A stretch of 64,000 bases of DNA. It comes from a virus. The stretch is from positions 41,688-105,687 of IMG/VR virus record IMGVR_UViG_3300025030_000054; one strand, written 5' to 3'. The notes under the pieces are model-generated. The model searched no databases. It had not been told where the DNA came from and saw only the letters and a program-made list of their open reading frames with translations. This document shows positions 8,867 through 48,525 of the stretch, one piece after another (within the stretch, counting starts at the first letter, position 1; the number at the start of each line of letters is the position of its first letter). The position numbers and the translations under genes were made by a program.

Positions 8867-8875
8867 GGGAGGGTT

Positions 8876-9088: not shown

Positions 9089-9099
9089 AGGAGGACAAA

Positions 9100-9318: not shown

Positions 9319-9329
9319 AGGAGGGTAAA

Positions 9330-9572: not shown

Positions 9573-9663
9573 GGGTTGTGTTAGGGAGTGGGTAGGGACT
9601 AAGGCAGTTGTTAGGTAAACCTTATAGTCTATATTATATATCTCGTCCGAAACGGACGACCTT

Positions 9664-9692
9664 ATTATACCACAGAAATGGCTTTTTGTCAA
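9664..9692 (-). promoter_or_regulatory. Consensus sigma70-type promoter facing left
   Basis: TTGACA-17 nt-TATAAT on the - strand with TG extension. Confidence 0.75.
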
Positions 9693-9769
9693 GCTTTTTC
9701 TTCAATGAAATGATTATTTTATTTTAATGTTCTGATTTTGGTAACTACCTAAAATTTAAGGAATAAGGA

Positions 9770-9815
9770 CTGTCAAGAGAATTATATTTAGTGATTTGTA
9801 TAATTCTCTTGACAG
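9770..9815. repeat. Perfect 17-bp inverted repeat with 12-nt spacer
   Basis: CTGTCAAGAGAATTATA (9770-9786) / TATAATTCTCTTGACAG (9799-9815). Confidence 0.85.
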
Positions 9816-9838
9816 AATTGGGTTTGGTGTGCTATAGT
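9809..9838 (+). promoter_or_regulatory. Sigma70-type promoter facing right
   Basis: TTGACA-18 nt-TATAGT with TG extension. Confidence 0.6.
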
Positions 9839-11154
9839 GGATTATTGGTTGTGTTGTTTTGTCGGTTTCTTACTACATGCCCATTACGTCTGACTGCATC
9901 TACGACAACACCCCCTCCGACATTGAAATCCTTGGAGATAGATAAAGCCGATTCTCCTGCCAAGTACCTCGTCACAGCAACGGCTTCTTGTTCCTTAGTT
10001 AGTGCAAATTTACACATAAGCGGGCGCATAGGTGTGTTCTTTTTGGCTAAAATTACATGCACAGAGGAGGATGATATACCAAACTTAGCAGCTATGCTCT
10101 CTGCATTGGCCCCTTCTAGGTATAATTTAACAATTTCATCGCCGTATAAGTCTATTAATTTTGGCTTAGGTTCTTTCTTGGGTTTTGGTGTGCACTCAGG
10201 TCTGCCATATACGTCATATAGGTAGTTACGAACCCTTTTAGCATTTAGTCGCAATAAGTCGCCAATAGCTCCTGCGGTAAGTCCTTCGGTATATTTTGTT
10301 CGAATTTGACTTAGTAACTGCTCGTCCCAATTGTGATCGCGAATAATTCCACGTGACCTTAGAAGTTTTGCTGTAGCTGCTTTAGGCACTTTGTACTTTC
10401 GTACGATAGCTTCAACTGACATACGATTTTCGTAATCTTTTATGATATTTTCTTTATTGTGCTCAAGGCGTTTATCACAAGCTCTAAGTCTTTTAGCTCC
10501 TTTCAGAATACTGCTGACTCTGGATTGGTTTACTTTAGTATGGGTTGATATTTCTTTTCTAGACATACCGCCATCGTGTAAAGTTTTAATGTAATTTATT
10601 GTTTCGTCTGGTATAGCACTATAAAATGAGTTTGATCGAGGCTGAATTCCCTCACGGTCTAAAATGTTTCGCACAGTTTTGTGAGACACTTTATATTTTT
10701 TACCTAGAGTAACCGTAGAGGCTCCATTTAGATATTCTTTAACTATTTCAAGTTCGTCTTCAGGAGAGTATTTGTGAGGCTTCAGCTTCCCTCCAGCGCC
10801 TCCATGGTGTACATTTAGAAGTGGGTTACTTTTGTCTATTATCTTCCTTCCGATACTCTTTATTGCCTTAGTCTCTAATAGGTAAGCTTCATCTTCGGGC
10901 ATATTGTCTTTCAATTTAATTATATAATCTCTTAGATCGAAGCCACTATCAATGATTTTCAGTATTAGCTTGTGCTTGGCTGTCTTATTTTTATTCTTAG
11001 CCTCAGAAATATGATTGTACATTCTGATCTTACTGCCCTTTCCGACATAAAATGGTTCATACTCTGTAACTAGACCTATATCTGGATACACAAAATTTCC
11101 TTCCACCAGCGGATTGAGGTACACATAAATATAGAAATTACGTTTTTGTTTCAT
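9832..11154 (-). CDS. GIY-YIG (LEM-3-like) homing endonuclease with tandem HTH repeats
   Basis: FYIYVYLNP...PFYVGKG..RM..H...EAYLLE...LLN, then repeated Y..G.S...I..K..VS...V..IL units; the only long - strand gene in the left arm. Confidence 0.8.
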   Translation of the reverse strand: MKQKRNFYIYVYLNPLVEGNFVYPDIGLVTEYEPFYVGKGSKIRMYNHISEAKNKNKTAKHKLILKIIDSGFDLRDYIIKLKDNMPEDEAYLLETKAIKSIGRKIIDKSNPLLNVHHGGAGGKLKPHKYSPEDELEIVKEYLNGASTVTLGKKYKVSHKTVRNILDREGIQPRSNSFYSAIPDETINYIKTLHDGGMSRKEISTHTKVNQSRVSSILKGAKRLRACDKRLEHNKENIIKDYENRMSVEAIVRKYKVPKAATAKLLRSRGIIRDHNWDEQLLSQIRTKYTEGLTAGAIGDLLRLNAKRVRNYLYDVYGRPECTPKPKKEPKPKLIDLYGDEIVKLYLEGANAESIAAKFGISSSSVHVILAKKNTPMRPLMCKFALTKEQEAVAVTRYLAGESALSISKDFNVGGGVVVDAVRRNGHVVRNRQNNTTNNPL

Positions 11155-11217
11155 AACTACTCCTTATAAAATATGATCTGGCTACCAATGTTTACCCCTC
11201 ACAACTCTTCCTTACCT

Positions 11218-11250
11218 TATTATATACGTAAATGGGTAATAACTTATCAC
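11218..11250 (-). promoter_or_regulatory. Bipartite phage promoter motif (GTGATA-N17-GTATATAATA)
   Basis: Upstream of the GIY-YIG gene; same spacing as four other copies. Confidence 0.7.
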
Positions 11251-11266
11251 TTAAAGGAGAAACAAA

Positions 11267-12637
11267 TTGTCAAAGATAGCTAACGTGCAGTATGAAATAC
11301 TATCTCTCAAAAAACTTCTAGACTCTAGAGATCCAGAGCTACTTAATAGACTACATTTTGATCTGTACTCTAACGCTGAACTAGCAAATATTTTGAAGAT
11401 ATCTAGTATACTGTATATGGACACTGGAAGACTGCCTAGCTGGGACCATCTTAAAGCGGAGATAGTAAACAGGGTATTACAGACTGACAAGCAAAACTTT
11501 TACCTAGGGCTGCTTCAAGATATCAAGGACAAGGACGCGGCAGACATAAGCACGGAAGACATAATTAAGAACTTGAAGACTCAAAGACAGTTCAGGCAGA
11601 TACTGGACTCTGCTGGCAAACTAGTAGGGTCTGTGGAAAGTAGAGATGCTAACGCAGCAGTAGATATTATGAAAGAATTGTACCAAGACATGTTTTATCA
11701 AGACTCTCAAGAATCCCTTGAATCTTCTGACTTAGTGAATATGGCAGGTAAGACAACGAGTATAGATTGGGAGACGACTGGCTACGACTCTATAGATGAG
11801 AGAGGTGGGATTTGTAAGGGTGGTTTATGGTACTGCTTAGGTGCAGCTAAGAGAGGTAAAAGCACATTAGCTCAAGGAATGCTGACCCATGCACATGAAA
11901 AGTACGGTGGAAGTTCTTGCTACATGTCATTTGAAATGTCAAAAATCGAGGTAAAGTCTAGGATACTGGCTGCCAAAAGCTCGACAGATATCGGCCTTGT
12001 AATAAGTGGATTGCTAAGTCAAACTGAGAGACTGAATCTAAGAAAAGCTGAGGTGGATCTTCTGATAGGACTTACTCCAAACGCAGAAGACTTTTGCGAG
12101 TACACTAGTCAGTTAAACGATGCAGAGTTTTGGGCAGAGGCTTGGCAGAATTTTGCGCCAAAGGATGATAGGGTCTACATTATCGACGATGCAGGCGATT
12201 GGGCTGATACGTTTACTAAGATGAGATTGTTGGCTACACTCAAAGGAGTCAAGCGATTTGTCATAGATTATCCGATGCTCATCCCTAGGGCATCGGGACC
12301 AGAATTCTCTAAATTATCCACGTGGGAATATCATTTGGAAATGTCAAAGCAGTTAAAAAGTTTTGCTAGAAATACTGGCACTAGGATCATAGCCCCTGCG
12401 CAGTACAAAGAGGGGGAGGATAAAATTTCTTTTGCTAGTAATATTATCAACGATTGCGACGGAATGATTGCTTTGTATGAAGATGACGGAGACAAAGATT
12501 ATGGCGAAATGGGTTGCGTGTCAGTTAAATTTAAAGCATACAGGAACTATATCACAATACCAAGTCAGCCGACACTTCAGCCTTTCAAACTACTTAAAGA
12601 ATTAAACTACTCTAGATTTGCTAATTTCAACTTCTAA
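11267..12637 (+). CDS. DnaB-like replicative helicase
   Basis: TGYDSID, Walker A GAAKRGKST, SFEMS, VIDY, PAQ. Confidence 0.85.
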   Translation: MSKIANVQYEILSLKKLLDSRDPELLNRLHFDLYSNAELANILKISSILYMDTGRLPSWDHLKAEIVNRVLQTDKQNFYLGLLQDIKDKDAADISTEDIIKNLKTQRQFRQILDSAGKLVGSVESRDANAAVDIMKELYQDMFYQDSQESLESSDLVNMAGKTTSIDWETTGYDSIDERGGICKGGLWYCLGAAKRGKSTLAQGMLTHAHEKYGGSSCYMSFEMSKIEVKSRILAAKSSTDIGLVISGLLSQTERLNLRKAEVDLLIGLTPNAEDFCEYTSQLNDAEFWAEAWQNFAPKDDRVYIIDDAGDWADTFTKMRLLATLKGVKRFVIDYPMLIPRASGPEFSKLSTWEYHLEMSKQLKSFARNTGTRIIAPAQYKEGEDKISFASNIINDCDGMIALYEDDGDKDYGEMGCVSVKFKAYRNYITIPSQPTLQPFKLLKELNYSRFANFNF

Positions 12638-33883: not shown

Positions 33884-33951
33884 AAGTGTCACTAAAAGGG
33901 GTGGGTCAAACCGCCCCTTTAATTTTAACTTTAGCAAGAGGAGTTTTAAAA

Positions 33952-36885
33952 ATGTACTATGTCCCGATAAGTTACACAAGAGAATTTGTAGACCTGATGA
34001 TGTACCTAAAAACAAAGTATGGCCAGAAGTTGTTTGATCTGGAAGGTATAGGCAAGCAACTTGATATGTGCAAATTCTCTAAGGATTTTTTCTCAGCTAC
34101 TACTACGGCAGATGCCAGTGTAGACGCAAATGCCAACGTCACAGACACTTCCAATATTGCTTACGGTATTGAACTACCTAAACCTTATTTCAAACTCAAT
34201 AGCTATTTCATGTTGTGGAAGCATATGAGAAAACTATATGGCATGGAGGTTGCCAACTCTACTATAGAGCAGCAGCTTACAGGGTCGGTATACGTAAATG
34301 ATTTTCTTGGAATCGCTGCTGGAAGTCCGTACTGCTTTAATTACAGTACCTACGATATCATGCTTCTGGGCCTACCTATGGTGGATAAAATTAAGTCGGT
34401 AGCCCCCAAATACCTGTATAGTTTCAAAAGCCAACTTGAGCAGTTTGTTGTAATTGCTTCTAACTCTACCCTCGGTGCTGCTGGGCTGGCTGATCTTCTG
34501 ATTGTAATGAGCTACTATGTCAAAAATATTCTAAGTACTAAATCAGATGCTGGATTTTCTTTCAAGGATGAGGCGGCTTGCTGGAACTACGTTAAAGAAA
34601 CTTTGGTGAGTTTTATCTACACTATTAACCAGCCAATGCGAGGCAATCAGTCACCGTTTACTAATGTATCTATTTATGACTCAGAGTTTTTGAATTCTCT
34701 TTGCCCCCAATACGTGTTTCCTGACGGCAGCACTCCAGATATATACTTAGTTCAGCGGATTCAGGAACTCTTCTTGGATGTTATGAACTCAGAAATGAAA
34801 CGCACTCCTGTGACTTTCCCAATTACCACAGCTTGCTTCTCTGTAAATGACGATAAGAAAATTACGGACGAAGCATTCATTGAGTTCATCGCTGAAAAGA
34901 ACACAGAGTTTGGCTTTATCAATATGTACATAGGTAAGAGTTCAACGCTCTCAAGTTGCTGTTTCACTGGCGATCAAAAAGTTCTCGTGAGGGATAGCTA
35001 TGCGGGTGTGAGGTTAATGCCTATTGAGAAATACGCCACCACCCCCTTTGAAGAAAAACCTAACGCAACCGTATACCATGATGGGTCTTGGGTTAAAGGC
35101 AAAACGGTAAAAACTAAATACACCGGCAAACTGTACACTATCAAAACTGCTAATAAAAAAGAAGTCACTGTGACTGCCGACCATATTTTTCCCACACAGA
35201 ATGGGGATAAGAATGCTGCGGATATCACTTTAGATGAAATGTTACTTTTTAATAGTTCTCCACTCACACCAGCTATGAGGGGAACCCAAGAGTTAACCTA
35301 CGAAGACGGTCTGTTGATAGGTGCTTACTTAGGAGATGGAAGTATTTATTACAGAAACAATGGGGCATCTGTTGAAGTTACTATGTCGGTAACTGAGGTG
35401 AAACTTGAAAGACTGCCCTTCTTGAAGTCTTGGAATATTTACCCTAGCAAAAATAATGTGGTATTTGCTAAGAGCTATTCTTTAGAAACAGCAGCTAAGA
35501 TTGAAGAGTGGGTTACTGTGGGTAGAGCGCCAGATAAGCGTTTGTCTATGCAGGTACTAGACCAACCTTACGAGTTTAGAGAAGGAATTTTAGACGGACT
35601 TTACGCCACTGACGGAGGCAATAGCAACCGAATTTATACCACATCAGAAGGTCTGGCAGAGGACTTGGAAGTCCTTCTTACCAGCCTCGGAAGACAGAGT
35701 ATAATGGACGTGTCTGACAGGACTGACGAGCCTGTAGTGATTAGGGGAGAAGAGTTCAACAGAAACTACCCGCTACATTGTGTGAGATGGTACGCCCCTA
35801 AAAATTCAAGAAAACAGGAAGGTATATATCTTAAGAGAAATGGTAATACCTATTTCAAGGCAACTGAGATAGCCGTGAGGGAGGTTGTTGAAGAAGAAGT
35901 TTACTGCTTTGAGGTTCTAAATACAGATGAGCCGTATTTCACGCTACCTAATGGAATTATAACCCACAATTGTCGCCTCAGAAGTGATACAGATAACGAG
36001 TACTTCAATAGTTTTGGTTCTGGTAGCTCTAAGATTGGCTCATTGGGTGTTACTACAATTAATCTTCCGAGGCTTGCTTTTAAAACAGCAGGGCTATCAA
36101 AAGATACTGCCGAACGAGAAGCCTATTTCTGGAGTGAGCTTAAAGAGTTGGTAGGCATTGCCGCTAGAGTCAACCACACTAAGCGAGATATCGTAAAGAG
36201 CAGAATTGACAGTAATAATCTGCCGCTGTACTCTTTAGGTTTTATGGACCTATCTAAACAATACTCAACGCTAGGGGTAAACGGTCTTAATGAGTGCCTA
36301 GAAATTTTAGGGCTTAACATTTTGGCGAGTGATGGGCAAGAATTTGTTGTTCGAATACTCGAAACCATAAACTCTGAAAATGATAAATTCCAAAAGGCTT
36401 ACAAAACTCCCCATAACTGCGAGCAAATTCCAGGAGAAAATGTCTCTATTAAACTTGCAGATAAAGATAGGTTTATGGGGTATAACGATAGGTACGAACT
36501 TTATAGCAATCAGTTTATACCCCTCACAACTAAAGCTGACCTGCTAGACCGTATTCATCTTCAAGGTTTGTTTGACAGTCATTTTTCGGGTGGCGCTATT
36601 TGTCACTTGAATATTGAAGAGAAGGTAGAAGATACTAAGAAAGTAGTAGAACTTATCAAGATGTGTGCAGAGAAGGGTGTAATTTATTTTGCCTTAAACT
36701 ACAATCTGCAACGTTGTTCTGAAGGCCACATGTCTGTAGGTAAGAAGGAAACTTGTGGGGTATGTGGCGGGGAAGTGATAGATAACTATACAAGGGTTGT
36801 TGGGTTCCTGACCAATGTAAAGAACTGGCATAAGGTAAGACGCGAGCAAGATTATCCTGAAAGACAGTTTTATAAAGAGGCTTAG
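33952..36885 (+). CDS. nrdD: Anaerobic (class III) ribonucleotide reductase, intein-containing
   Basis: GAGGAG RBS; QSPFTN, SSC/CRL finger loop, PGEN, C..GH...CGVCG, RVVGFL glycyl-radical motif. Confidence 0.93.
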   Translation: MYYVPISYTREFVDLMMYLKTKYGQKLFDLEGIGKQLDMCKFSKDFFSATTTADASVDANANVTDTSNIAYGIELPKPYFKLNSYFMLWKHMRKLYGMEVANSTIEQQLTGSVYVNDFLGIAAGSPYCFNYSTYDIMLLGLPMVDKIKSVAPKYLYSFKSQLEQFVVIASNSTLGAAGLADLLIVMSYYVKNILSTKSDAGFSFKDEAACWNYVKETLVSFIYTINQPMRGNQSPFTNVSIYDSEFLNSLCPQYVFPDGSTPDIYLVQRIQELFLDVMNSEMKRTPVTFPITTACFSVNDDKKITDEAFIEFIAEKNTEFGFINMYIGKSSTLSSCCFTGDQKVLVRDSYAGVRLMPIEKYATTPFEEKPNATVYHDGSWVKGKTVKTKYTGKLYTIKTANKKEVTVTADHIFPTQNGDKNAADITLDEMLLFNSSPLTPAMRGTQELTYEDGLLIGAYLGDGSIYYRNNGASVEVTMSVTEVKLERLPFLKSWNIYPSKNNVVFAKSYSLETAAKIEEWVTVGRAPDKRLSMQVLDQPYEFREGILDGLYATDGGNSNRIYTTSEGLAEDLEVLLTSLGRQSIMDVSDRTDEPVVIRGEEFNRNYPLHCVRWYAPKNSRKQEGIYLKRNGNTYFKATEIAVREVVEEEVYCFEVLNTDEPYFTLPNGIITHNCRLRSDTDNEYFNSFGSGSSKIGSLGVTTINLPRLAFKTAGLSKDTAEREAYFWSELKELVGIAARVNHTKRDIVKSRIDSNNLPLYSLGFMDLSKQYSTLGVNGLNECLEILGLNILASDGQEFVVRILETINSENDKFQKAYKTPHNCEQIPGENVSIKLADKDRFMGYNDRYELYSNQFIPLTTKADLLDRIHLQGLFDSHFSGGAICHLNIEEKVEDTKKVVELIKMCAEKGVIYFALNYNLQRCSEGHMSVGKKETCGVCGGEVIDNYTRVVGFLTNVKNWHKVRREQDYPERQFYKEA
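34960..35970 (+). mobile_element. Intein with LAGLIDADG homing endonuclease (337 aa)
   Basis: Starts CFTGDQKV, block B VTADHIF, LIGAYLGDG and LDGLYATDG, ends ITHN before C; splicing restores SSCCRL. Confidence 0.93.
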
Positions 36886-38034: not shown

Positions 38035-38080
38035 GGTGGGTACCTTTAAAATTATTTTTTACTAATAGTGCATTTTTTAC

Positions 38081-38109
38081 TTGACTTTTTGCCGAAAATG
38101 TGCTATAAT
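38081..38109 (+). promoter_or_regulatory. Sigma70-type promoter firing into a non-coding region
   Basis: TTGACT-17 nt-TATAAT with TG extension. Confidence 0.75.
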
Positions 38110-38422
38110 AAAACCATGTTGACTTGAAAGGTTAACAAGAAAGATTTTTATCTTTCTAAGTAATTTAAATATTACTAAACAGAAAAACTAATTACTACTT
38201 AGTATCTCAACGAAGCGTAGCGGAGTTGAGCAACAAATTAAACCTTCTAAGTCTTAAACAAGTTGTTAGCTAAGTTATCTAAAGGCAAATTCTATACCTA
38301 AAATCTAACAGCCTTCAGGCTTACTTGAAAGTAGACTTTGCTTTGTTCAGTCGCACAAGTGCTCCTGAACTTATTATAGAAATAGTAAATATTTGAAAGG
38401 CTACTACAGGTTAGTAACTATA

Positions 38423-38512
38423 CTTCAGAAGGCTTTCCATACTACTTGTCTCAGACCTTCAGAAGACTTTCCATACTACTTGCCTCAGACCTTCAGAAGA
38501 CTTTCCATACTA
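38423..38512. repeat. 34-bp tandem repeat, about 2.6 copies
   Basis: CTTCAGAAG(A/G)CTTTCCATACTACTTG(C/T)CTCAGAC at 38423, 38457 and 38491 (partial). Confidence 0.9.
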
Positions 38513-38533
38513 TCTCCCGTCCCGCCCAAATAA

Positions 38534-38959
38534 TCACTCAACCTTCAGCTTCCCAGCTCGCCACAATTCCCTCTGGCGCCGCCAACTCGGGTCCTCAATA
38601 TGCGGTAAATCCAAGAAGCTCTTAAAATAGAACCCAGCAGTCAGACCTAACTTAACTGCTATATCAGCCATTATTTTAAACAGTTTTTTATTTGCAGACC
38701 AGTCGAAGTTTTTACCGTCCGCTGTCAAAGGCCATAGATCAACAGCTAGTCCGTAGTTATGAGCGGAACTTCCCGGAGGCGCGTTACTAACTACTTTTCC
38801 TGGAGTCGTCCTGCCTTGGGCGTAGATAGCTTTCTGATGTGCCATTGTTCGTCGCCCATCACTAATTCCCCACTTCCTTCCAGTAGCCTTCTCAGTCTGC
38901 TTTATAAGTTCCTCTACCTTTGCCTTAAATGCTGGTTCAAGGGTATCTATCTTCCTCAT
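38534..38959 (-). CDS. Endolysin, M15-family peptidase
   Basis: AGGAG RBS before ATG 38959; G.RT...Q..IYAQGRT, SAHNYGLAVD, DLPHIE. Confidence 0.88.
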   Translation of the reverse strand: MRKIDTLEPAFKAKVEELIKQTEKATGRKWGISDGRRTMAHQKAIYAQGRTTPGKVVSNAPPGSSAHNYGLAVDLWPLTADGKNFDWSANKKLFKIMADIAVKLGLTAGFYFKSFLDLPHIEDPSWRRQRELWRAGKLKVE

Positions 38960-38969
38960 TTTAAATCTC

Positions 38970-40634
38970 CTAAAATAATCCCAACTCTTTATAATCGCCC
39001 CAGTACTCTTCCACGCTAACATAGTTCTTGCTATAAAGGTCGCAGTGGTTTGTAAAGTTCTTTCCGTGGTTAATATGAACACTAGAATTAATACAATGCC
39101 AAGGGTTTCTCACTAAATCAGGCTCAAGCATTACCTGACCTCTTAGCAAAGCCTCTTTAACTTTACTCTCAAAATGACCTATAGCATCACTAAAAAGCAT
39201 GGTCATCTGGTGCAAAGGAATAGAGTCATGCACATGCTCATAGCTCTGAAAGCCCTCAGAACATACTCCTTTTAAGTTAGTATTATAAATCACCCCACTA
39301 TCAAAGTTAGGGTAATCGAAGTAGCCCTCTGGATAAAGTACGTCATGTTCTAAGAAACTCACATATTTGTAAGACCCAGTGGCTTCCGCTCGGTAAAGTA
39401 ACTGAAGGATCTGCAAAGTAATGTTTAGATGGTTGCTACTCTGGGTCTGCGCTATGAGTTCTGGGAAAGGATTATTTTCAATAGTTTTCCAAGTGCTTGT
39501 TAAAATGTCTGCCTTGCCCTTAGATATCCTCTCCAAATTACCTAAAACATTACTCACAACACTATCGTCATTATTATTTGTATAGAATATTCCAAGCCTG
39601 TTACAAGTGCCTTCTGGGATAATTAGATAGTCATTTTCAGGGATTACTTTAGAGTACTCAACGTCATCCAGTTTGTACTTAACCACTAGGTGCTTTAGTA
39701 TGCCTTCTTGGGGGTCCCACCCGGCTAGGCTATTATTCACGCAAACATTAAGGCCACTACCTCTAACCAACCGCCTAAGATTAGCTGTTACGTTAGCCCC
39801 ACCGTATGATGCTTCTATAATCTCTAATTTCACAGTCTTATCCTTTGCAGCGGTTATTTGAGCAGCTATTGAGTTAACCCTATCAGCACCAAAATGTTCT
39901 TCGATAGGCTTTAAATCAAGTCCGAGTTCGTTGAAACCTATGATATAATTCCTAATCCTATCGTCGTAAATCATAGGGTAAGGTATATCTCCCATACCAG
40001 TTTTGAAGAGATGCACCCAAGACAGGAATGGAAGGCAGATAGTTTTATGCCCTGCCTTTCTATACTTACTGTGAATGTAACCCTCTTCCCCACCAAAGCC
40101 TGCAAAGTCTGGGTTAAATCCTAGCCAAGCATCTTTCCTACAAGCAAATAGACCAAGACCCTGCATAGGAATTTCGTAGGGTTCTGAGTTAGGGTCTATT
40201 GAAGCAGCTCGCCAAGTCCCCCACATACCACTTGCCCACTCATCGTTGAAAGCGTCTGCATAATTAACTAGATCGTCGTATCTCAACGGACCTTGCAGAA
40301 GATCTTTACAGTCAGGATTTTTAGAAGTCCAATCTTTAAAGCTAGCCATAGCACCTTCTGTAAGTAAAACATGGGTATCAATGCACATAACCCAGTCACC
40401 TAGAGCCTCTCTAAATACAAGGTCTCTAGGTGCCGAAGTTCCTGTTTTTTCTGTGTAAAGAATGTAGCGAGTTCCGTAGGTACCGTCTATAAAACTTTTT
40501 AGACGCTTATCACCATAGTTGTCTATCACTAAAATCTCAGTGTCTGTCATATCTTGGTACATTAAGAGAGATTGGACAGTGAACCAAACTTCAGTAAAAT
40601 TATTATAACTCGCCATTCCTATAGTTAGTTTCAT
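38970..40634 (-). CDS. Multi-domain glycosyltransferase (ppGalNAc-T-like GT-A, SUEL-lectin-like, second GT-A)
   Basis: EILVIDN, DTH, GLF, FGGEE, VHLFK..PYP; IIEASYG..NVT...N...WDP..G..KHL.VKY; VSFLEHDVLY. Confidence 0.8.
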   Translation of the reverse strand: MKLTIGMASYNNFTEVWFTVQSLLMYQDMTDTEILVIDNYGDKRLKSFIDGTYGTRYILYTEKTGTSAPRDLVFREALGDWVMCIDTHVLLTEGAMASFKDWTSKNPDCKDLLQGPLRYDDLVNYADAFNDEWASGMWGTWRAASIDPNSEPYEIPMQGLGLFACRKDAWLGFNPDFAGFGGEEGYIHSKYRKAGHKTICLPFLSWVHLFKTGMGDIPYPMIYDDRIRNYIIGFNELGLDLKPIEEHFGADRVNSIAAQITAAKDKTVKLEIIEASYGGANVTANLRRLVRGSGLNVCVNNSLAGWDPQEGILKHLVVKYKLDDVEYSKVIPENDYLIIPEGTCNRLGIFYTNNNDDSVVSNVLGNLERISKGKADILTSTWKTIENNPFPELIAQTQSSNHLNITLQILQLLYRAEATGSYKYVSFLEHDVLYPEGYFDYPNFDSGVIYNTNLKGVCSEGFQSYEHVHDSIPLHQMTMLFSDAIGHFESKVKEALLRGQVMLEPDLVRNPWHCINSSVHINHGKNFTNHCDLYSKNYVSVEEYWGDYKELGLF

Positions 40635-41869
40635 ATTAGACTCTTAGTTCCCACGCTTGTTTTAATTCTAACTGCTCCCTCATTTGAATACAACGCAAAT
40701 GATAGAATACCGTTAGATGTTTTAATTCTTAAAGGCCCGTTTTGAGATGTTTGAACAGGCACTTTAGTTGACCCTGCGAGTAATGTTATAAATGGTATGA
40801 AAGGTGCTGCTGTAGTGGTTGTAGTTGGATTACTTGTTGTCGTAGCTTGTATAGTTGTAGTTGTCGGTTGAACTGTTGTAGTAGCCGCCAAAGTTGTTGT
40901 AGGAACTAAGGTAGTTGTGGTAGTTGGAGCTACGGTTGTTGTAGGGGCAGCTGTTGTGGTAGCCAGCGTAATCACCACCGTATCGCTCACCCCTGCGCTC
41001 ACATTCCCCGCCGCGTCCTTGGCCCACGCCCAGAGCGTCTTGATCCCTGCTTCCGCAAACGTGTGCGTCTCAGGTGCCGTCGCGCTCCATCCTGAGTCTC
41101 CTGCAAGCGGTGGGGTTGCTGACTCGGTGAGCTTGTAACCTGTTACTGCTACATCGTCCGTTGCGAGTAGAGATGTGATCGGGACGGTGAGGGTGGTTGA
41201 GGTTGCGGGGATAGTGAAGTAGGTAACGGCCGGGAAAACTATCGCACCATCTGCCGCCAAAAACGGTGTGAGTGCAGACATGATGCCAGTGACCAAAACA
41301 TCCTTCGCCGCCGCGTTGACATGTACGCCGTCAACCAGATAATCAGCTTTCCAGTTGGCGTTGACGGTCATCGCCGTCTGCCAATTGACAAACGGCAGAC
41401 CCCATTCTGTCGCCAGAGATTGCAGCCTATTGCGTAGCGGATCGGTATCGGTCAGATTTCTGTGGTAGGTGAAGCCATCTGTTGATTCCGCATGTGCGGG
41501 CGCAGCCACAAGCAACATGAGGGGATAGCTTGCCATCCCGTCCAAGAGTGCGCGATAATCCCTCACCCTCTGTTCGTAGGCGTCAGGGTTATAGCGTGTC
41601 GGATTTCCAGAGATAAAGTTGTAGTATCCGTCATTGGTCCCGCCGTGAAGGAACACAACCAAGTCAGGCGCAAACGGTGTTACTTGAGTCGAGAAGTTGT
41701 TCAGCGCATCGTAAGAAGTAGACCCCCCAACCCCACTGTTGGTAATAGTGTATGTTGCTGCCGGATATGAATCATTGAGCGCGGCCTGTAGCTTAGCCGC
41801 TAAATCCCCAAAGGTTGCGTCGTTGTATTCGGTGTTGCTGTCGCCTACTAGGGTTATTTTGGTTGTCAT
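40631..41869 (-). CDS. SGNH/GDSL hydrolase plus Ig-like domain plus Thr-rich tract
   Basis: GDSNT, N.GVGG, GTND, DGVH; WAWAKDAAGNVS; PTTT repeats. Confidence 0.82.
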   Translation of the reverse strand: MTTKITLVGDSNTEYNDATFGDLAAKLQAALNDSYPAATYTITNSGVGGSTSYDALNNFSTQVTPFAPDLVVFLHGGTNDGYYNFISGNPTRYNPDAYEQRVRDYRALLDGMASYPLMLLVAAPAHAESTDGFTYHRNLTDTDPLRNRLQSLATEWGLPFVNWQTAMTVNANWKADYLVDGVHVNAAAKDVLVTGIMSALTPFLAADGAIVFPAVTYFTIPATSTTLTVPITSLLATDDVAVTGYKLTESATPPLAGDSGWSATAPETHTFAEAGIKTLWAWAKDAAGNVSAGVSDTVVITLATTTAAPTTTVAPTTTTTLVPTTTLAATTTVQPTTTTIQATTTSNPTTTTTAAPFIPFITLLAGSTKVPVQTSQNGPLRIKTSNGILSFALYSNEGAVRIKTSVGTKSLI

Positions 41870-41877
41870 TTTGTCCC

Positions 41878-44415
41878 CTAGTACTCTTTGTAATTCGTTA
41901 CTGTGAAATCTGAAGCATTACTATCTGTATAAAAGTCCATACCTAAACACTCATAAAAAGTTGACCCTGCGTCTTTTATGTCTATGCCAAAAGTTAGCCA
42001 ACCTGTAGTTGCTAGCTGAGTACGGCTTGAATTTAAGACTGACAGCTTTGCCGTAGTGCCGCTAACTTCCAGTTTCGCAATATAGGTTGTCCCTGCCGTT
42101 ACTGTAGGGGTGTCAATGACACCTGAATATGTATCAGATGGTGTGTACCACCTCAGCCTAAGAACATTAGTACTTCCCGTACCAGCCGGTGATGCATACA
42201 CCCATAATCTACGTGTAGATGCGATAGTCGCACCATCCCCAACGACCGGAGCGGAAGATTTTTCAACAAGGCCGAATATATCACCGCCTCCTTCCGTGAA
42301 TACAGAAGCAGCAACAGAAAATGTTACTTCGTAACTCCTCACATTGGCTTTGCTGAAATTCTTAGAATACATAAAAGCAGCTTCCCATCCCAATGAAAGG
42401 ATTCTTAAGCTGGATGTTTCCGAAACCGACCCCCCATCCCCGGTGACTACTTGCCACTTAGCTGTATCAAGTGACGAATTGTTAAAATTATCGGAGTATA
42501 ACGGCGGAGTCCCGCTAACCTCCGCCGACTCCGTACTCCCCGCCCCGTTGATAGCCGCGAGGCTGTAATAGTACGTGGTCCCGTTGGTGCGCCCTGTGTG
42601 AGTGTACGGGAGGGTGACGCCGGTTATCGTATTGCTACGGGTGCCTGCTACTGTGCCCCATTTGAGGTCGTAGCTGGTCGCGCCGGTGCCGCCGGATGTT
42701 AGGGCGATGACGTTTTGAGTGTCGCCGGGGGTGACGCTGATGACCGGCTGAGTGGGAGCGGCTGCGGTTGTGACAGTAAACGTATCGCTAACCCCACCAA
42801 TGGTAAGTGTGGTATTTACTGCTGTACTAGCACTGCCAGAACTTGTCACCTTGACCTTGACAGTATCACCATTGATGACCGTTCCCGATGTGCTTGTGTA
42901 CGCTCCACCATTCTTGCTGTATTCGCCACCTGTTATCGAAATAGTAGCAGCATCATTTATTCCTGCTACAGTGATCGTGTTGGACTCTGTAGCTGTACTC
43001 ACCGCAACGCCTGTCTGATCGGTAAAGGTGAAAGCATCGGGAGTCGTATCTGCCACTACAGTAACGACAGAGAAAGTATCAGTCACATCACCTATGGTTA
43101 AGAACGCTGTCGCTGAACTGTTATACCCAGTAGAGCTGTAAAGCTGTACCCTTACGCTGTCGCCGTTTACTACAGTTCCGTCCACATTTGTGAATGCACC
43201 CTCATTGACAGAATACCAGCCACTGAGTACGTGAATGGCAGCAGGTGCATTTATACCAGAGACAGTTATCGGAGCCGAGGTAATCAGGGTGTTTAGTGCT
43301 ACGCTTGATTGATCCACGAAGACGAATCCATCGGGCGTCGTATCTGGTGCTACTGTAGTTGTCGGACTTGCTGTAGTTGTCGGTGCTACTGTAGTTGTCG
43401 GTGCTACTGTTGTGGTAGTAGTTGTTGTAGGCACTGCAGTAGTTGTAGCTGCTAAAGTTGTAGTCGTAGGGTTAGCCGTAGTTGTCGGACTTGCTGTAGT
43501 TGTCGGTGCTACGGTAGTCGTAGTTTCTATTAACGTAGTGACGGTGAAAGAGTCTGTAACTCCGCCTATGGTTAAATACCCAGTCGTTACAGTCCCATAG
43601 TCAGGAGAACTGTAAAGTTGTACTTTTACGGTATCCCCATTCACCACTGTACCATCCGCATTTGTAAACGGGCCGTCATTGATAGAATAATTAGCGCCAG
43701 TTATACTTATCGGAGTTGCCGTATTAATACCATCCACAGTTATACCAAAGAACAGTGTAATTAAGCTATTCCGGGCTACATTCGTTTCATTGATAAAATT
43801 AAATGTATTAGGAGTGGTATCTGGTACTGCTGTAGTTGTTGGAGCCACTGTTGTAGGTACTGCTGTAGTTGTGGCTGCTACTGTAGTAGTAGTTGGTGCT
43901 ATAGTTGTAGTAGTAGGTACTGCCGTAGTAGTAGGTGCTACAGTAGTCGTAGGTGCTACCGTAGTTGTAGGTGTTACAGTAGTTGTTCCTAACAAATCGG
44001 TCCTAATAACAAACGTATAGCCTTGTGCAAACAACGCATCTTCCTGCACTTGTGTAGAAGCCTCTCCTACAAGTATGCCGGACTGACCAATCCTAGCATC
44101 CAGTTTCCGAATTACTTCTTGGGTTAAATGAAAGGCAAACTCGCTGTCACCTGCATAAATTTCTGCAAGCCCCAAGTTAGGAGTCCAGTCAGTAGTTATC
44201 TGGTAAGAAGAACCAGCTACGGAAATTCCAGCGTAGTTAGGGCTGATCTGAATTTGGGTGTTACTATCCACAGATATAATACCGTAAATAGCGGCTACTC
44301 CGTAAACTTTAAAAGTATCCCCAACACCAACCTTACTGAGCCAAGAAGTTCCCACCCCAGTCACTATATTTGTACCTTGATCTACTGATACTGTACCAAC
44401 CTGATACTGTGCCAT
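41878..44415 (-). CDS. Tail fibre-like protein with two mucin-like Thr/Pro tracts, three DTTP-led beta repeats, FN3 and C-terminal beta-sandwich
   Basis: N-terminus YQVGTVSV..GT..VTGVGTSW typical of fibre anchors; (P/A)TTT(V/A) repeats; YTHTGRTNGTTYYY. Confidence 0.75.
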   Translation of the reverse strand: MAQYQVGTVSVDQGTNIVTGVGTSWLSKVGVGDTFKVYGVAAIYGIISVDSNTQIQISPNYAGISVAGSSYQITTDWTPNLGLAEIYAGDSEFAFHLTQEVIRKLDARIGQSGILVGEASTQVQEDALFAQGYTFVIRTDLLGTTTVTPTTTVAPTTTVAPTTTAVPTTTTIAPTTTTVAATTTAVPTTVAPTTTAVPDTTPNTFNFINETNVARNSLITLFFGITVDGINTATPISITGANYSINDGPFTNADGTVVNGDTVKVQLYSSPDYGTVTTGYLTIGGVTDSFTVTTLIETTTTVAPTTTASPTTTANPTTTTLAATTTAVPTTTTTTTVAPTTTVAPTTTASPTTTVAPDTTPDGFVFVDQSSVALNTLITSAPITVSGINAPAAIHVLSGWYSVNEGAFTNVDGTVVNGDSVRVQLYSSTGYNSSATAFLTIGDVTDTFSVVTVVADTTPDAFTFTDQTGVAVSTATESNTITVAGINDAATISITGGEYSKNGGAYTSTSGTVINGDTVKVKVTSSGSASTAVNTTLTIGGVSDTFTVTTAAAPTQPVISVTPGDTQNVIALTSGGTGATSYDLKWGTVAGTRSNTITGVTLPYTHTGRTNGTTYYYSLAAINGAGSTESAEVSGTPPLYSDNFNNSSLDTAKWQVVTGDGGSVSETSSLRILSLGWEAAFMYSKNFSKANVRSYEVTFSVAASVFTEGGGDIFGLVEKSSAPVVGDGATIASTRRLWVYASPAGTGSTNVLRLRWYTPSDTYSGVIDTPTVTAGTTYIAKLEVSGTTAKLSVLNSSRTQLATTGWLTFGIDIKDAGSTFYECLGMDFYTDSNASDFTVTNYKEY

Positions 44416-44474
44416 ACAAGTCTCCTAACAAACTATCTAATAAATTGTCCTAAAACAAATAAATCATTTCATAC

Positions 44475-44507
44475 TATTATATACCCTCTAGGCATAATAA
44501 ATATTAC
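44475..44507 (-). promoter_or_regulatory. Bipartite phage promoter motif (GTAATA-N17-GTATATAATA)
   Basis: Upstream of the Thr-rich fibre/SGNH/GT/endolysin operon. Confidence 0.72.
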
Positions 44508-44527
44508 TTTGGCAAGTACATTTAATA

Positions 44528-45058
44528 CTAGACCCACTTAATTGCTTCTACTTCCTCTACTGTCTCAGCTAATTCTATTTGAGTTTTTAATGCTCTGGCC
44601 TTTTGATGTATAGCATTACCTCTCAAGGCCATAGTTATGGGAATCTGAACCATCTGAGATTTATCCATAGTTACTGTAGAGCTGTCCTGGCAAGTCCACT
44701 CAATAGAAAACTCTGGAACAACTTGAGCTGCCTGAACTGCTATACTAATTCTTCGGATAGCTGCTAAGTCTGAATCAAAACGTTTGTCTAGGTAATCAAA
44801 GCCAGAGAGTTCTTCTACATCTCTGGCTTTTTTGATTTCATCCCATTTTATTTCTTTGGCTCTAAGCAAAGTCAGTGTAGACTGCACCACAGGAACTCCA
44901 TTAATTATGTGGGTAGCCTTCTCCATCTCCAATAGATTTTCTGGGCTGGCTTTAAAGTGCAGAAATTTATGGATGGCGGGGTCACTGTTATAGTCTGCTG
45001 AATCATCATCATAAATTCCCACTTTCTTTCCAGTTATTATTTCATATACACAAATCAT
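44528..45058 (-). CDS. Tail fibre-associated protein (DUF4376-like)
   Basis: KWDEIKKARD...GF...FDSD....RI...W...D...V...KAR.LK..I..A.T.EEV..I.W. Confidence 0.75.
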   Translation of the reverse strand: MICVYEIITGKKVGIYDDDSADYNSDPAIHKFLHFKASPENLLEMEKATHIINGVPVVQSTLTLLRAKEIKWDEIKKARDVEELSGFDYLDKRFDSDLAAIRRISIAVQAAQVVPEFSIEWTCQDSSTVTMDKSQMVQIPITMALRGNAIHQKARALKTQIELAETVEEVEAIKWV

Positions 45059-48000
45059 CTGACAACTCCCTCTATAGAAAACACAACTTTCGTTATTTCC
45101 TTTATCCCAGAAAATCCTGCTATATTAGCGTGCAAGGCTACGGTATGAGAACCTGAATTAAGGTAAACCCTATTGCTAACCGCATTGCCTCCTAAGTACG
45201 CTCCAGCACCACCATATTGATGTGAATCTATAGTTACGCCGTCTACTTTTATTTCGTAGTAGTAGTGCTCATCGCCAGACACTGCCCCGTCTTTGGTAAC
45301 GTAAGTCATAAGGTTATAATAAGCCGAATGTCTTACTGTAAAATTATAAGAAGCAACCAAGGCTGGGTTTATGTTGTTGTTTATACCATTGTAAAAATTT
45401 GTGTCTATAGAGGCGTACCGCTGCACTGAAACAGCTTCTCCGGCAATTTGCAAGGTATCTACATAGGCATCTCCAGTGTATATCTTGTTACCGTCTATGG
45501 TAGTTGTGCCTGGCCTTGTCCACTCTGATACTGTTGTAGCCGCACTAGCCGCATTATCCCTTACAGTAGCTGCCAAGGTTCCGCCCACTTTAGCTACGTC
45601 ACTGGCGTATACCATGTTGTCTGTATCAGTTACTTGAATAGTTCCGAAAGAAGTTACGACAGAAACGTCCCAGCCTGCTTTCCAAGTATCTATATCGTAG
45701 TTAGAATAACCCGCGATAAAATTCTTTACGACTACTTTAGGGTGTGCCCAAGAAGCATTAGTCTCCCCAATCCAAACACACGCCTTGGTTCCATCGTGTC
45801 CGAAACGTATAGCATGAGATGCACTAGACTGTCCTATAATAGACGCAGAAGTGTTTACCCAGTAACCTCCTGAGTAATTATACCCGCCAATCAATGCGGT
45901 AAAGTATTGGTTGGTGGTGTAATTGTAAACATCTACAGAAAACTGAAGCATCGTACCAGACCATAATACCGGCAATGATATCTTAATAGCTCCAGTCGCA
46001 CTACCAGTAATACTGTAAGTTCCACCTACTGGTCTTGCTATGGTGGTTAAGCTATCTTCAGTGGAGTTTGCCATAGAAGCTGCTTTAACAGCTACCGCGT
46101 TAAGTAAGGCAGTTCTAGCATCGTAGTAAGCCTTCCAGCTTGCCCTAAAGGTTGACCCTACGATTACAGTAGTAGTACTTGCACTAGCGTCTGAAATCCA
46201 AGAGGGTATTCCACTAGTCCAAGTTACTCCTGCATTTAAGTAATCGGCTAAACTCTGAAAAGCGGCTGTGTAAGTAGCCTTTTCTGTAGGTAATCCAAAT
46301 GAGGTAGCTTGGGTTTCTATTCCAGCCTTTTCAGCAGATATTACCTCCCACTCTCTCCTAACCGTGTACTTTTCATTGGGCGTTAGTTTACTGTCAGAGG
46401 CGATATCTGATACTAAACTATTAACTGTGTTTGCTGTGTTCACTGCGTTGGTTGCATTTTGAGAGGCAGTTGCAGCAGCTCCCGCAGCAGTATTTGCAGT
46501 ACTATTTGCCGTGTCTGCTACAGTCTTTGCTTTGGTAGATATGGCATTTAATAAGATAGTTCGATTGTAATAATAGGTGCTCCATTTTGACCTAAAAGTT
46601 GCTCCTACAATAGTCGTGGTGGTTGGTATGTTAGCGTCAGTTATCCAAGAAGGAACTCCACTACTCCATGCCGCGCCATTGTTAAGGTAGTTTGCAAGAG
46701 CCTGAAAAGCATTTATGTAGTTAGCCTTTTCTGTAGTTATTCCGAAGTTCTCTGCCTGAGTATTTATCCCACCCCACTCGCTAGCAACAACATCCCACTC
46801 TAGTCTTACAGACTGCTTTTCGGTAGCCGTTAGTTTGCCATCAGACGCTATTTCAGCAATTAGTGCATTAGCTGTTTCGGCTTCGTTTAGAGCATCTGCT
46901 ATAGACTCATTTATATCTTCCACTGCGGGAGTCCATGCAGTAGCCGTGTTACCTATTTCTACTTTTAATAACTTGACTATAGGTTTTACTCCAGTACCGT
47001 AAGTACCGTAGAACGAAAGATGGCAGATATCTCCATTATATCCAGCAGGGTCATATGAGAAACTTCCAGTTAAGGAGAAATACTGATACTCTGTTGTAGC
47101 ATTCACAACTAAAGAAGTGTTTATAAGGTATTTTCCCAAACTATAGACTACTACCTGACCAGGGATGGTAGATTTTAACAAACCAGAAATAGTTACAGGC
47201 TTCCCTAAGTTGGCTATTGCAATACTGTTAAGATCCACTGGTAGGTACTCTGTAACAGAAGTTCTTTCTACGTCACTGCCTGCTAATAGGTTTCTCCCAC
47301 CAACCACAATAGCACTGTTATCTACTTCAATTGTTTGTCCGGCAGCATTTTTAGGGTTTGAAGTGAAATGAACTGTCCCATAGAAATCACCGCCCATGAG
47401 CTGAAAAGTGCCTGTCTTATCAAACTTCCAGCCAGCCTGTCCAGCAACATAGTTAGTGCTTTGAATATAGTTGCCTATCTTTGCATTGTCTATGTCCCCC
47501 TCTTTTATTGCAGCTTTGGCTATATAAACTGTTCCTTGGTCAACTATGAAAGGAACTAAAGGCGTAGCTCCCGGACCTGCATCCACAATAGAAAATCTGT
47601 CAGCAAGAATTTCTACATTGCTAGTTACTCCATCACTCCACAGACCTATTCCAGCGATCTTACCGTTAGCATCCACCTTCAACATCATCTTAGCCTCTAC
47701 CGCAGAGGTTATAGCTCCGTCAATTGCTGTAGTAGTTTCGACAGTAGTAGAGTAGTTGATTAGTGCAGAAGCTGTGTTATTGTTTGCCGTAGCTACCGCG
47801 CCAGAAGTAGCAGTAGCTATAGCTGAGTCCGCGTCTACTTTTGTATAGTAGCTTGCTAACGAAGTTGCCAGCGAACCAGTACTAACTAGAGAAGAGGTAG
47901 CCCCAGTTATTGCCGTAGCAGTTGCAGAGTCCGCTTCGGTTTTTGTGTAGTAACCAGAAAGCGCCGTAGCAAGTGTACCGTTAGTGACTGACTCAGAGGT

Positions 48001-48525
48001 CGCGCCAATTACTGCTTCAGAGATTGCAGTGTCGGCTTCCACCTTAGTATAGTAGTAGTCCAATGCTGCGGCTCTGGCTTGGGCTTCTCCAGATACCGCA
48101 GCAGCTCTATCTAAAATCTCTTGGGCTAGTCTATCTAACAAACCAACTTCAGGGGAATCTATCAGGTCTATTCTGCTACTAAGTTCCGAATGCAATTCGC
48201 TTTCAGTAATCTGCCCCGAAATCATTTCTATAATATCTGGGATAGATCTTACCGTGACACTCTTCTCTTCTGAATAGTTTAAACTTAGAAAATCAATGTT
48301 TTCTGGATCTTCAAAACTATCGTAAGCAGCTACCTTAATGTAGTACACCCCGTCATCTGAAGGTATAGTTACAGAAGTATCAGGCCCAACACTAACCATA
48401 TTACTTTCAGAAGGCGTAAAGCCGCTCTCTAAAGATGCATTGATTACGTAACCTACCACGTCAAGGTCAGGTGCCGGATTAAATGTTACTACATAATTTT
48501 TTATTCCAGCTTCTAAGTTTATCAT
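45055..48525 (-). CDS. Tail fibre / gpJ C-terminal-like receptor-binding protein
   Basis: N-terminal FN3, YYTK.EAD repeats, DUF1983-like KVDANG.IAGIG...ADRF...PFIV, duplicated IASD.KLT..EK domain. Confidence 0.8.
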   Translation of the reverse strand: MINLEAGIKNYVVTFNPAPDLDVVGYVINASLESGFTPSESNMVSVGPDTSVTIPSDDGVYYIKVAAYDSFEDPENIDFLSLNYSEEKSVTVRSIPDIIEMISGQITESELHSELSSRIDLIDSPEVGLLDRLAQEILDRAAAVSGEAQARAAALDYYYTKVEADTAISEAVIGATSESVTNGTLATALSGYYTKTEADSATATAITGATSSLVSTGSLATSLASYYTKVDADSAIATATSGAVATANNNTASALINYSTTVETTTAIDGAITSAVEAKMMLKVDANGKIAGIGLWSDGVTSNVEILADRFSIVDAGPGATPLVPFIVDQGTVYIAKAAIKEGDIDNAKIGNYIQSTNYVAGQAGWKFDKTGTFQLMGGDFYGTVHFTSNPKNAAGQTIEVDNSAIVVGGRNLLAGSDVERTSVTEYLPVDLNSIAIANLGKPVTISGLLKSTIPGQVVVYSLGKYLINTSLVVNATTEYQYFSLTGSFSYDPAGYNGDICHLSFYGTYGTGVKPIVKLLKVEIGNTATAWTPAVEDINESIADALNEAETANALIAEIASDGKLTATEKQSVRLEWDVVASEWGGINTQAENFGITTEKANYINAFQALANYLNNGAAWSSGVPSWITDANIPTTTTIVGATFRSKWSTYYYNRTILLNAISTKAKTVADTANSTANTAAGAAATASQNATNAVNTANTVNSLVSDIASDSKLTPNEKYTVRREWEVISAEKAGIETQATSFGLPTEKATYTAAFQSLADYLNAGVTWTSGIPSWISDASASTTTVIVGSTFRASWKAYYDARTALLNAVAVKAASMANSTEDSLTTIARPVGGTYSITGSATGAIKISLPVLWSGTMLQFSVDVYNYTTNQYFTALIGGYNYSGGYWVNTSASIIGQSSASHAIRFGHDGTKACVWIGETNASWAHPKVVVKNFIAGYSNYDIDTWKAGWDVSVVTSFGTIQVTDTDNMVYASDVAKVGGTLAATVRDNAASAATTVSEWTRPGTTTIDGNKIYTGDAYVDTLQIAGEAVSVQRYASIDTNFYNGINNNINPALVASYNFTVRHSAYYNLMTYVTKDGAVSGDEHYYYEIKVDGVTIDSHQYGGAGAYLGGNAVSNRVYLNSGSHTVALHANIAGFSGIKEITKVVFSIEGVVR

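Follow-up and report, generated by a model that had tools for sequence, protein, structure and literature searches.

The ppGalNAc-Ts (CAZy GT27), polypeptide GalNAc-transferases of animals and protists, are the glycosyltransferases (GTs) that initiate mucin-type O-glycosylation, which takes place on Thr/Pro-rich tandem repeats. To our knowledge, mycobacteriophages are the only phages for which glycosylation of virions has been shown experimentally, and in these it changes how antibodies recognise the particle. The locus described here belongs to an uncultured tailed phage of approximately 106 kb, represented by the 105,687-bp IMG/VR virus record IMGVR_UViG_3300025030_000054 (rated 93% complete). 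The window, i.e., the whole stretch of DNA that was analysed, is the right-hand 64 kb of this record. In the tail-fibre/lysis end of its late operon are the genes of a fibre-like protein, an SGNH/GDSL hydrolase protein and a GT. These three genes probably form a phage-encoded cassette for protein O-glycosylation, with the phage’s own virion proteins as the targets. The cassette appears to resemble mucin-type O-glycosylation in function, though not necessarily in the strict sense of a GalNAc-alpha-Thr linkage, through a separate enzyme family.

The ppGalNAc-Ts, such as human GalNAc-T2 (PDB 2FFU/4D0T/6NQT), are the best structural match of the first domain of the phage GT. Both sequences show a DxH motif with a distal His and a Glu-to-His spacing of 25 residues, a lectin or lectin-like domain stands after the catalytic domain, and the acceptors predicted for the phage enzyme are likewise Thr/Pro-rich tandem repeats. 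The lectin of the ppGalNAc-Ts is of the ricin-B type, whereas the phage GT has a SUEL/rhamnose-lectin-like module. The ppGalNAc-Ts are also held by a type-II membrane anchor, in contrast to the soluble, cytoplasmic phage enzyme with its extra fused GT-A domain. The phage domain is about 12–13 residues shorter from the DxH motif to the glycine loop/Glu and has no membership of the family at the sequence level.

In the mycobacteriophages Che8, Corndog and Myrna, GTs encoded by the phage are reported to modify its own virion proteins in the host cytoplasm (Freeman et al. 2023, Cell Host Microbe 31:1216, as cited in PMC11256854 and PMC12582341), and the same is proposed here. The mycobacteriophage system is experimentally shown, whereas the present one is predicted from genes and models. 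The acceptors also differ: in the mycobacteriophages, capsid proteins carry glycans (PMC11256854), while the acceptors proposed here are internal mucin-like tracts of a fibre and accessory proteins. Mycobacteriophage tail-tube subunits are reportedly glycosylated as well. A tblastn search of GenBank phages (50,697 records) returned nothing for the full phage enzyme, for its N-terminal domain (N-domain), even at E ≤ 1, or for a second family member, and megablast gave no match either; thus there is no detectable homology to the mycobacteriophage system.

[quoted passage not shown] The phage GT differs in having neither kinase nor PqqD partner, and its predicted targets are large structural proteins. 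The linear polyphosphorylated peptide system phosphorylates, and glycosylation is not mentioned in the abstract or outline of its published account (PMC13381572). The polymerases K4CP of E. coli and PmHS2 of Pasteurella also have two GT-A domains per chain, and Foldseek aligns both halves. However, their product is a free polysaccharide, they lack a lectin-like insert and any connection with Thr tracts, and whole-chain superposition on the phage GT is poor (root-mean-square deviation, rmsd, ~20 Å). The glycocin GTs SunS and ThuS belong to the GT2 enzymes with a GT-A fold, attach sugar to a ribosomal peptide within the cytoplasm and give marginal profile matches to domain 1 of the phage GT (E 0.2–0.27), but they S-glycosylate a single Cys of a structured peptide rather than poly-Thr tracts.

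The cassette and its tracts are as follows (aa, amino acids; ORF, open reading frame).

41878-44415, minus strand: fibre-like protein, 845 aa (ORF list; PHROG tail fibre families)
43822-43989, minus strand: Thr/Pro tract 1, fibre aa 143-198; 52% Thr, 14% Pro, zero charged residues
43345-43527, minus strand: Thr/Pro tract 2, fibre aa 297-357; 54% Thr
40631-41869, minus strand: SGNH/GDSL hydrolase protein, 412 aa (Pfam and PDB matches)
40802-40963, minus strand: Thr/Pro tract, SGNH protein aa 303-356; 54% Thr
40634-40801, minus strand: 56-aa C-terminal module of the SGNH protein; 74% identity to L001:9830-10001
38970-40634, minus strand: GT, 554 aa (Pfam Glycos_transf_2)

The three (P/A/V)TTT tracts are 54–61 residues in length and essentially uncharged. 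A tract scan (30-aa windows with Thr ≥ 40% and T+P+A+S ≥ 70%) found that only the fibre and SGNH ORFs carry Thr tracts in the whole window. Both fibre tracts lie where a sequence-only reading of the DNA had placed them, while the tract of the SGNH protein had been put at 40805-40965, off by 2–3 nt. At the DNA level, tract 1 consists of imperfect 18–60-nt tandem repeats and tract 2 of 18-nt tandem repeats.

The fibre-like and SGNH identities given in that reading are borne out by the database matches. The fibre belongs to the PHROG tail fibre families phrog_4924 and phrog_1980, and its residues 6-79 match the “distal tail protein gp20” (PDB 23gd_B, E 1.9e-5). It begins with an attachment-like N-terminal domain (aa 1-140), followed by tract 1, a repeat domain, tract 2, two repeat domains of ~95 aa, an FN3 domain (aa ~553-636; FN3 match at aa 560-638) and a beta-rich C-terminal domain. 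The three ~95-aa repeat domains (42760-43821, minus strand) each open with DTTP(N/D)xF and match no Pfam family; repeat domains 1 and 2 each stand directly after a Thr tract, giving a beads-on-a-string layout. The SGNH protein has an esterase domain (aa ~3-200; Pfam Lipase_GDSL_2, E 4.9e-17; PDB acylhydrolases, E 1.5e-5), a linker domain, the Thr tract and the conserved 56-aa C-terminal module. It has no PHROG family, and NCBIfam holds no family for the fibre, SGNH or GT protein. The 56-aa module has an internal (R)IKTS repeat and lies directly ahead of the GT gene both in the window and in the related locus L001, where it sits on a protein with a wholly unrelated N-terminal domain. It is possibly a virion anchor, or a docking or recognition element for the GT.

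Linkage of the transferase family to threonine tracts

An alignment-based scan of IMG/VR yielded at least 445 viral contigs with a relative of the N-domain, and 80 loci from this set were retained. Clustering of their GTs at 70% identity resulted in 36 clusters, 34 of them evaluable. Thr-tract ORFs are present in 57 of the 80 viral loci. Within 5 kb upstream on the GT strand there are 71 tract ORFs, including 37 that abut the GT start, and a further 10 lie elsewhere in ~0.8 Mb of flanks. By cluster, an upstream same-strand tract ORF occurs within 5 kb in 25 of 34. Where at least 2.5 kb is available on both sides, the tract is upstream only in 19 viral clusters, downstream only in none, on both sides in three and on neither in five (sign test, p = 3.8e-6). 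The sequence-only reading had set linkage of homologues to Thr-rich genes beforehand as the test by which it could be refuted. The outcome is strongly positive in phages and in bacteria, and it supports the claim of that reading that the GT glycosylates the tracts.

The proteins that carry the tracts are diverse. When the tracts were masked, 73 upstream tract proteins fell into 40 homology groups. Those that can be annotated include Hoc-like head decoration, head, major tail, tail, tail fibre, pectate-lyase-like and hydrolase proteins, and others carry Ig, Calx-beta or BNR domains. As these groups are unrelated, it is the tract, and not a particular protein, that recurs beside the GT. A number of the loci (L028, L031-L037 and L049) have tract proteins of 1000–1600 aa upstream of the GT homologue, composed of several poly-Thr tracts and Cys-rich modules, one of which matches the plant Stig1 family (PF04885, E 7e-18).

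The family also extends to bacteria, with 392 relatives of the N-domain in a genome collection. These come from Chloroflexota/Thermomicrobiales, Actinomycetota, Gemmatimonadota, Planctomycetota and Alpha-, Delta- and Gammaproteobacteria, and the carriers include isolates of Labrys, Bradyrhizobium (such as B. diazoefficiens SZCCT0138), Oricola, Desulfofustis (such as D. glycolicus) and Desulforhopalus. Thr-tract ORFs occur in 45 of 78 bacterial loci, and 13 clusters have them upstream only versus three downstream only (p = 0.02). In an alphaproteobacterial metagenome-assembled genome (L153; CAVUGF010000007.1, 5100-12600), there is a tandemly duplicated cassette. Here a fusion joins the N-domain to an HprK-related-kinase-A-like domain (TIGR04352 at E 2e-20, which is below its cut-off), and a PqqD-family chaperone comes next. 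Nearby are several proteins of 70–175 aa in which a twin-arginine signal and an AHA cleavage-like site precede poly-Thr. By its gene content, this cassette looks like an undescribed system that glycosylates secreted Thr-rich peptides. Other bacterial fusions of the N-domain involve radical-SAM/SPASM, PqqD, TatA, FemAB and methyltransferase domains. As these bacterial contexts are those of peptide modification, they point to polypeptide Thr tracts as the substrate of the family and suggest that the phage-tail setting is no coincidence.

Among related phages, the tract and the GT are gained and lost together. The N-terminal 140-aa domain of the fibre was found in 25 loci. Where a tract follows this shared domain, a GT lies downstream in all loci with enough sequence (L280, L283, L285, L287 and L302); in L281 the sequence stops within the intervening gene. 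The tract-less fibre homologues have no GT, with 2.5–7.9 kb of downstream sequence present in about nine of them. The most informative of these is L284 (IMGVR_UViG_3300025030_000005, 8001-12558), a 113-kb sibling whose sample also yielded the nearest relative; its fibre N-domain is 68% identical. Its order is fibre (without a tract), M15 endolysin, lipase, NrdG and NrdD, with the SGNH gene and the GT absent too, so that the window and L284 are a natural presence/absence pair for the cassette. In L001, the GT is 93% identical, and the second gene encodes another N-terminal domain but keeps the tract and the 56-aa module before the GT. The same locus encodes a different 148-aa protein at the endolysin position (L001:11678-12124); as this protein stands between the retained GT and lipase, the lysis gene has been swapped.

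Domain architecture of the glycosyltransferase

Alignment with seven full-length homologues, structure prediction and profile searches divide the 554-aa GT into three parts. It contains no signal and no membrane segment, and is a soluble enzyme with two GT-A domains joined by a lectin-like domain.

39870-40634, minus strand: domain 1, aa 1-255, GT-A (Pfam PF00535, Foldseek, VIA-align, invariant columns)
39603-39818, minus strand: domain 2, aa 273-344, small beta domain (hhalign, hidden Markov model)
38973-39602, minus strand: domain 3, aa 345-554, second GT-A (model, VIA-align, invariant columns)

The identity of the protein as a glycosyltransferase, as first read from the sequence, is confirmed by Pfam Glycos_transf_2 (PF00535) at aa 5-98 (E 4e-8, 33.8 bits against a cut-off of 23.3), which is matched by all 40 aligned homologues of domain 1. 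In a Foldseek search with this domain, the best ~25 chains are all ppGalNAc-Ts (T2/T10/T12/T4; E 1e-13 to 1e-11). VIA-align likewise places GalNAc-T2 first (Z 20.5, rmsd 3.3 Å over 236 residues, model 1-265 versus chain 136-413), and its best ~22 rows contain ppGalNAc-Ts only (Z 20.5–18.0, rmsd 3.2–3.8 Å, ~235 residues).

The invariant residues of domain 1, judged over two alignments of 40 and 29 homologues, follow the pattern DxH...GGE...H. They are D38, D86-x-H88, G159/G161, G181-G182-E183-E184 (with G182 nearly invariant) and W206-x-H208. In GalNAc-T2, Asp224, His226 and His359 bind Mn2+, and Gly332 and Glu334 contact the sugar (PMC13071866; PMC6994419). The spacing from E183 to H208 is 25 residues, the same as that from Glu334 to His359; this is an argument from spacing. 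The shorter distance from DxH to the glycine loop/Glu agrees with the length difference in the structural alignment, which is 13. D86-x-H88 and H208 may form the metal site, and GGEE may be the sugar-binding loop. Domain 1 is proposed to be an initiating polypeptide Thr O-glycosyltransferase.

The label “ppGalNAc-T-like” given by the sequence-only reading holds for the fold and the residue pattern of the putative metal site but not for membership of the sequence family, and by its sequence domain 1 is not a member of GT27. A search of the GT against the PDB by phmmer gave no match, and PHROGs gave no family for it. A Glyco_transf_7C match in the homologue P0036 was considered as evidence for GT27 and dropped: it sits in a second GT domain outside the common N-domain. 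PF02709 (Glyco_transf_7C) occurs in 20–82% of the members of some neighbouring ESM Atlas clusters, which is a lead rather than support.

Domain 2 joins the profile of an N-terminal extension found on stand-alone relatives of the C-terminal domain (C-domain, i.e., domain 3; hhalign 98.5%, E 3.9e-15), and a hidden Markov model built here matches aa 273-344 of the GT (E 6e-13). The profile of this extension matches the rhamnose-binding lectins 5h4s (E 7e-12) and CSL3 (E 3e-7), over a C-terminal half-motif of ~35 aa only, against ~95 aa for a complete lectin domain of this type. Domain 2 is without the cysteines of these lectins, has no lectin match in the PDB by itself, and gives a weak match to Pfam DnaJ-like_C11_C; a ricin-B match was not found by Pfam in the GT. 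By profile it appears related to the SUEL-type/L-rhamnose-binding lectins, with a putative role in sugar binding.

Domain 3 is modelled with a predicted local distance difference test (pLDDT) score of 96.8 and has no Pfam match. In a wide VIA-align search it resembles TarS, TarP, SpsA and CgT (Z 13.7–13.8), and it has an invariant E429-H430-D431-x-x-Y434 after strand 4, at the position of the DxD motif. Its unannotated family is rare: 1.84 billion proteins contain 147 representatives, in which the domain is found by itself, together with the lectin-like module or in fusion with GTs. Domain 3 is proposed to be an elongating transferase.

Gene order and transcription of the late block

The minus-strand late block runs from the tape-measure and J-like tail-tip genes through the DUF4376, fibre-like, SGNH/GDSL, GT and M15 endolysin genes to a class-3 lipase. 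The features that flank the cassette are as follows.

45055-48525, minus strand: Phage_Tail_Tip protein, 1156 aa
44528-45058, minus strand: DUF4376 tail protein
44416-44527, minus strand: gap of 112 nt between the DUF4376 and fibre-like genes (sequence read)
38534-38959, minus strand: M15/VanY endolysin (likely ATG start at 38959)

The tight packing noted in the sequence-only reading is confirmed. An ATGA is shared between the stop of the SGNH gene and the start of the GT gene, and 8 nt separate the fibre stop from the SGNH start. A single dedicated promoter at 44475-44507, also claimed, is not supported: a sigma-70 consensus scan has no match there, and all that the 112-nt gap offers is an extended -10-like TATATAAT box at 44476-44483 (minus strand). 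This motif is unique within the window, and an AGGAG ribosome-binding site precedes the fibre ATG. The gap is a possible internal late promoter, judging from these motifs, and the three genes may be transcribed by read-through from the same-strand tail genes upstream. A hairpin with a T-run terminator is present at 37390-37357.

The longest endolysin ORF begins at GTG 39082 and would overlap the GT by 113 nt. The start is most likely ATG 38959, 11 nt past the GT stop, since GGAG precedes it and it fits the L284 homologue (145 aa). Between the endolysin and the lipase there is a 500-nt stretch without an ORF (38035-38533), containing a near-consensus plus-strand promoter, TTGACT-17-TATAAT, at 38081-38109 that points against the flanking genes. 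Farther along, the anaerobic ribonucleotide reductase NrdD (33886-36885, plus strand) has 999 aa versus 632 aa in two related phages. The insert of ~367 aa lies between ...SSCC and RLRSD...; because it has LAGLIDADG-like motifs and an HN end, it is read from its sequence as an intein with a homing endonuclease, absent from the relatives.

Proposed mechanism, alternatives and meaning

The preferred reading, in which the GT glycosylates the tracts of the phage’s own proteins, can be set out in steps. In the cytoplasm of the infected cell, domain 1 would draw on host nucleotide sugars and put the first sugar on the hydroxyls of the (P/A/V)TTT repeats, in both tracts of the fibre and in the one of the SGNH protein. 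The donors must be host metabolites, because the common nucleotide-sugar synthesis families PF01370 and PF00483 are absent from the phage genome. The C-terminal GT-A domain with its invariant EHD would then add a further sugar. The SUEL/rhamnose-lectin-like domain may hold the enzyme on stretches that are already glycosylated and so lead to dense filling of the tracts; the ricin-type lectin domain of the ppGalNAc-Ts has a comparable role. Extended stalks with a coat of glycans would result, set between the functional domains of proteins that are associated with the virion. The roles put forward in the sequence-only reading, in which the stalks are stiff and the glycans give shielding or mimicry, are conjectural.

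A number of results weigh against this reading. A glycan on the phage’s own proteins is deduced from genes, linkage and fold. With respect to linkage, synteny among related phages inflates the raw locus counts, and in the both-sides test five of the 27 viral clusters and 12 of the 31 bacterial ones had no tract near the GT; some of the tract-negative viral clusters have shorter Thr runs, below the threshold, directly at the GT start. The reverse test started from 47 viral loci that were chosen by a TTTAPTTT-coding pattern and truly encode tracts, and an N-domain GT is near only 2 of them. Pfam recognises just three GTs in the 86 ORFs downstream of those tracts, namely the two GT2 proteins already counted and a PF11397 GlcNAc-transferase, and one further locus (L212) has a lectin-plus-C-domain gene after the tract gene. 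The statement that Thr tracts predict this GT was rejected on these counts, which show that the tracts are widespread without the N-domain enzyme. The N-domain enzyme predicts tracts, but tracts do not predict the enzyme.

With respect to the fold, generic GT2 enzymes score only 2.5–3.5 Z lower than GalNAc-T2 (RmlT 18.0, PcManGT 17.6, SpsA and TarS 17.1), so the fold alone is unable to fix the type of acceptor, and the full-length model has a middling pLDDT of 70.8. A profile search of the PDB with domain 1 matched TarP and TarS and no ppGalNAc-Ts. Pfam, even at E ≤ 10, finds only PF00535 (aa 5-98) in this domain and no Glyco_transf_7C. A profile of its GGEE-His half matches nothing in the PDB at E ≤ 10, and the WGGEN-like resemblance therefore stays at the level of a motif.

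The alternative that survives best, although it is unlikely, is that the GT acts on a host envelope glycan or lipid-linked sugar, resulting in superinfection exclusion or receptor masking, or on phage DNA, with the tracts as flexible linkers. It draws on the generic GT2 assignment by Pfam, on the wall-teichoic-acid transferases TarP and TarS as the best sequence-level PDB relatives, on a literature in which phage GTs are mostly ascribed to DNA or cell-wall modification (PMC10202952), and on the frequency of Thr tracts in viral contigs without the N-domain GT. Against this, the linkage is directional and independent of the family of the tract-carrying protein. Fibre neighbourhoods without the GT are nearly tract-free, and tract and GT come and go together among fibres with the same N-domain. 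The linkage is seen in bacteria too, and there the GT stands beside PqqD chaperones and small poly-Thr proteins with a Tat signal instead of fibres. The GT lacks a membrane segment, and no hydroxymethyl-pyrimidine pathway was found in the genome. The whole 105.7-kb genome has one GT2 match only and no homologue of thymidylate synthase or dCMP hydroxymethylase. DNA glucosylation was set aside on this ground, as there is no thymidylate-synthase-like gene to supply a glucosylatable base.

A slightly less probable alternative accepts that the tracts are glycosylated but has the chain begun by the C-terminal GT-A domain or by a host enzyme, with the N-domain elongating or decorating it. Fold similarity cannot separate initiation from elongation, the C-domain family is often preceded by a lectin-like module, and in L212, where no N-domain is seen, a gene with both of these parts comes after a tract gene. 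However, the N-domain is the constant partner of the tracts, and the C-domain is found in only 13 of 80 viral loci and one of 78 bacterial loci. In many loci, a gene of ~250 aa that encodes the N-domain is the sole GT beside the tract gene. It is very improbable that the tracts are unmodified, recombination-prone spacer DNA in a mobile host-range module with the GT as a passenger: the tracts are imperfect tandem DNA repeats and the domains that flank them are swapped among relatives (the SGNH domain versus another N-terminal domain in L001, and the fibre C-terminal domains), but this leaves unexplained the 40 unrelated groups of tract proteins and the bacterial Tat-signal poly-Thr peptides.

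Full-text literature searches returned no description of a phage GT family that is associated with poly-Thr tracts. From the distribution of its genes, the N-domain family appears to be dedicated to poly-threonine tracts and to be far more widespread than the mycobacteriophage system. If this is true, many environmental phages would bear mucin-like glycan stalks on their fibres and on decoration proteins, which would affect adsorption, protease resistance, the stickiness of particles and immune recognition. It would also provide a soluble, bacterial-type enzyme for making mucin-like glycopeptides, have a bearing on how the eukaryotic ppGalNAc-Ts originated, and bring to light a class of modified Thr-rich peptides that bacteria make with a Tat signal.

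A broader and more tentative proposal, less likely than not, is that the eukaryotic GT27 enzymes have a prokaryotic and viral sister group in the N-domain family. Its members would carry out cytoplasmic, mucin-type glycosylation of Thr with an O-linked N-acetylhexosamine (HexNAc-O-Thr), giving a glycan brush in phages and Tat-exported glycosylated peptides in bacteria. This brush would cover the fibres, heads and tails of phages. The dense O-glycosylation of Thr/Pro repeats with lectin-assisted filling would then not be a eukaryotic invention.

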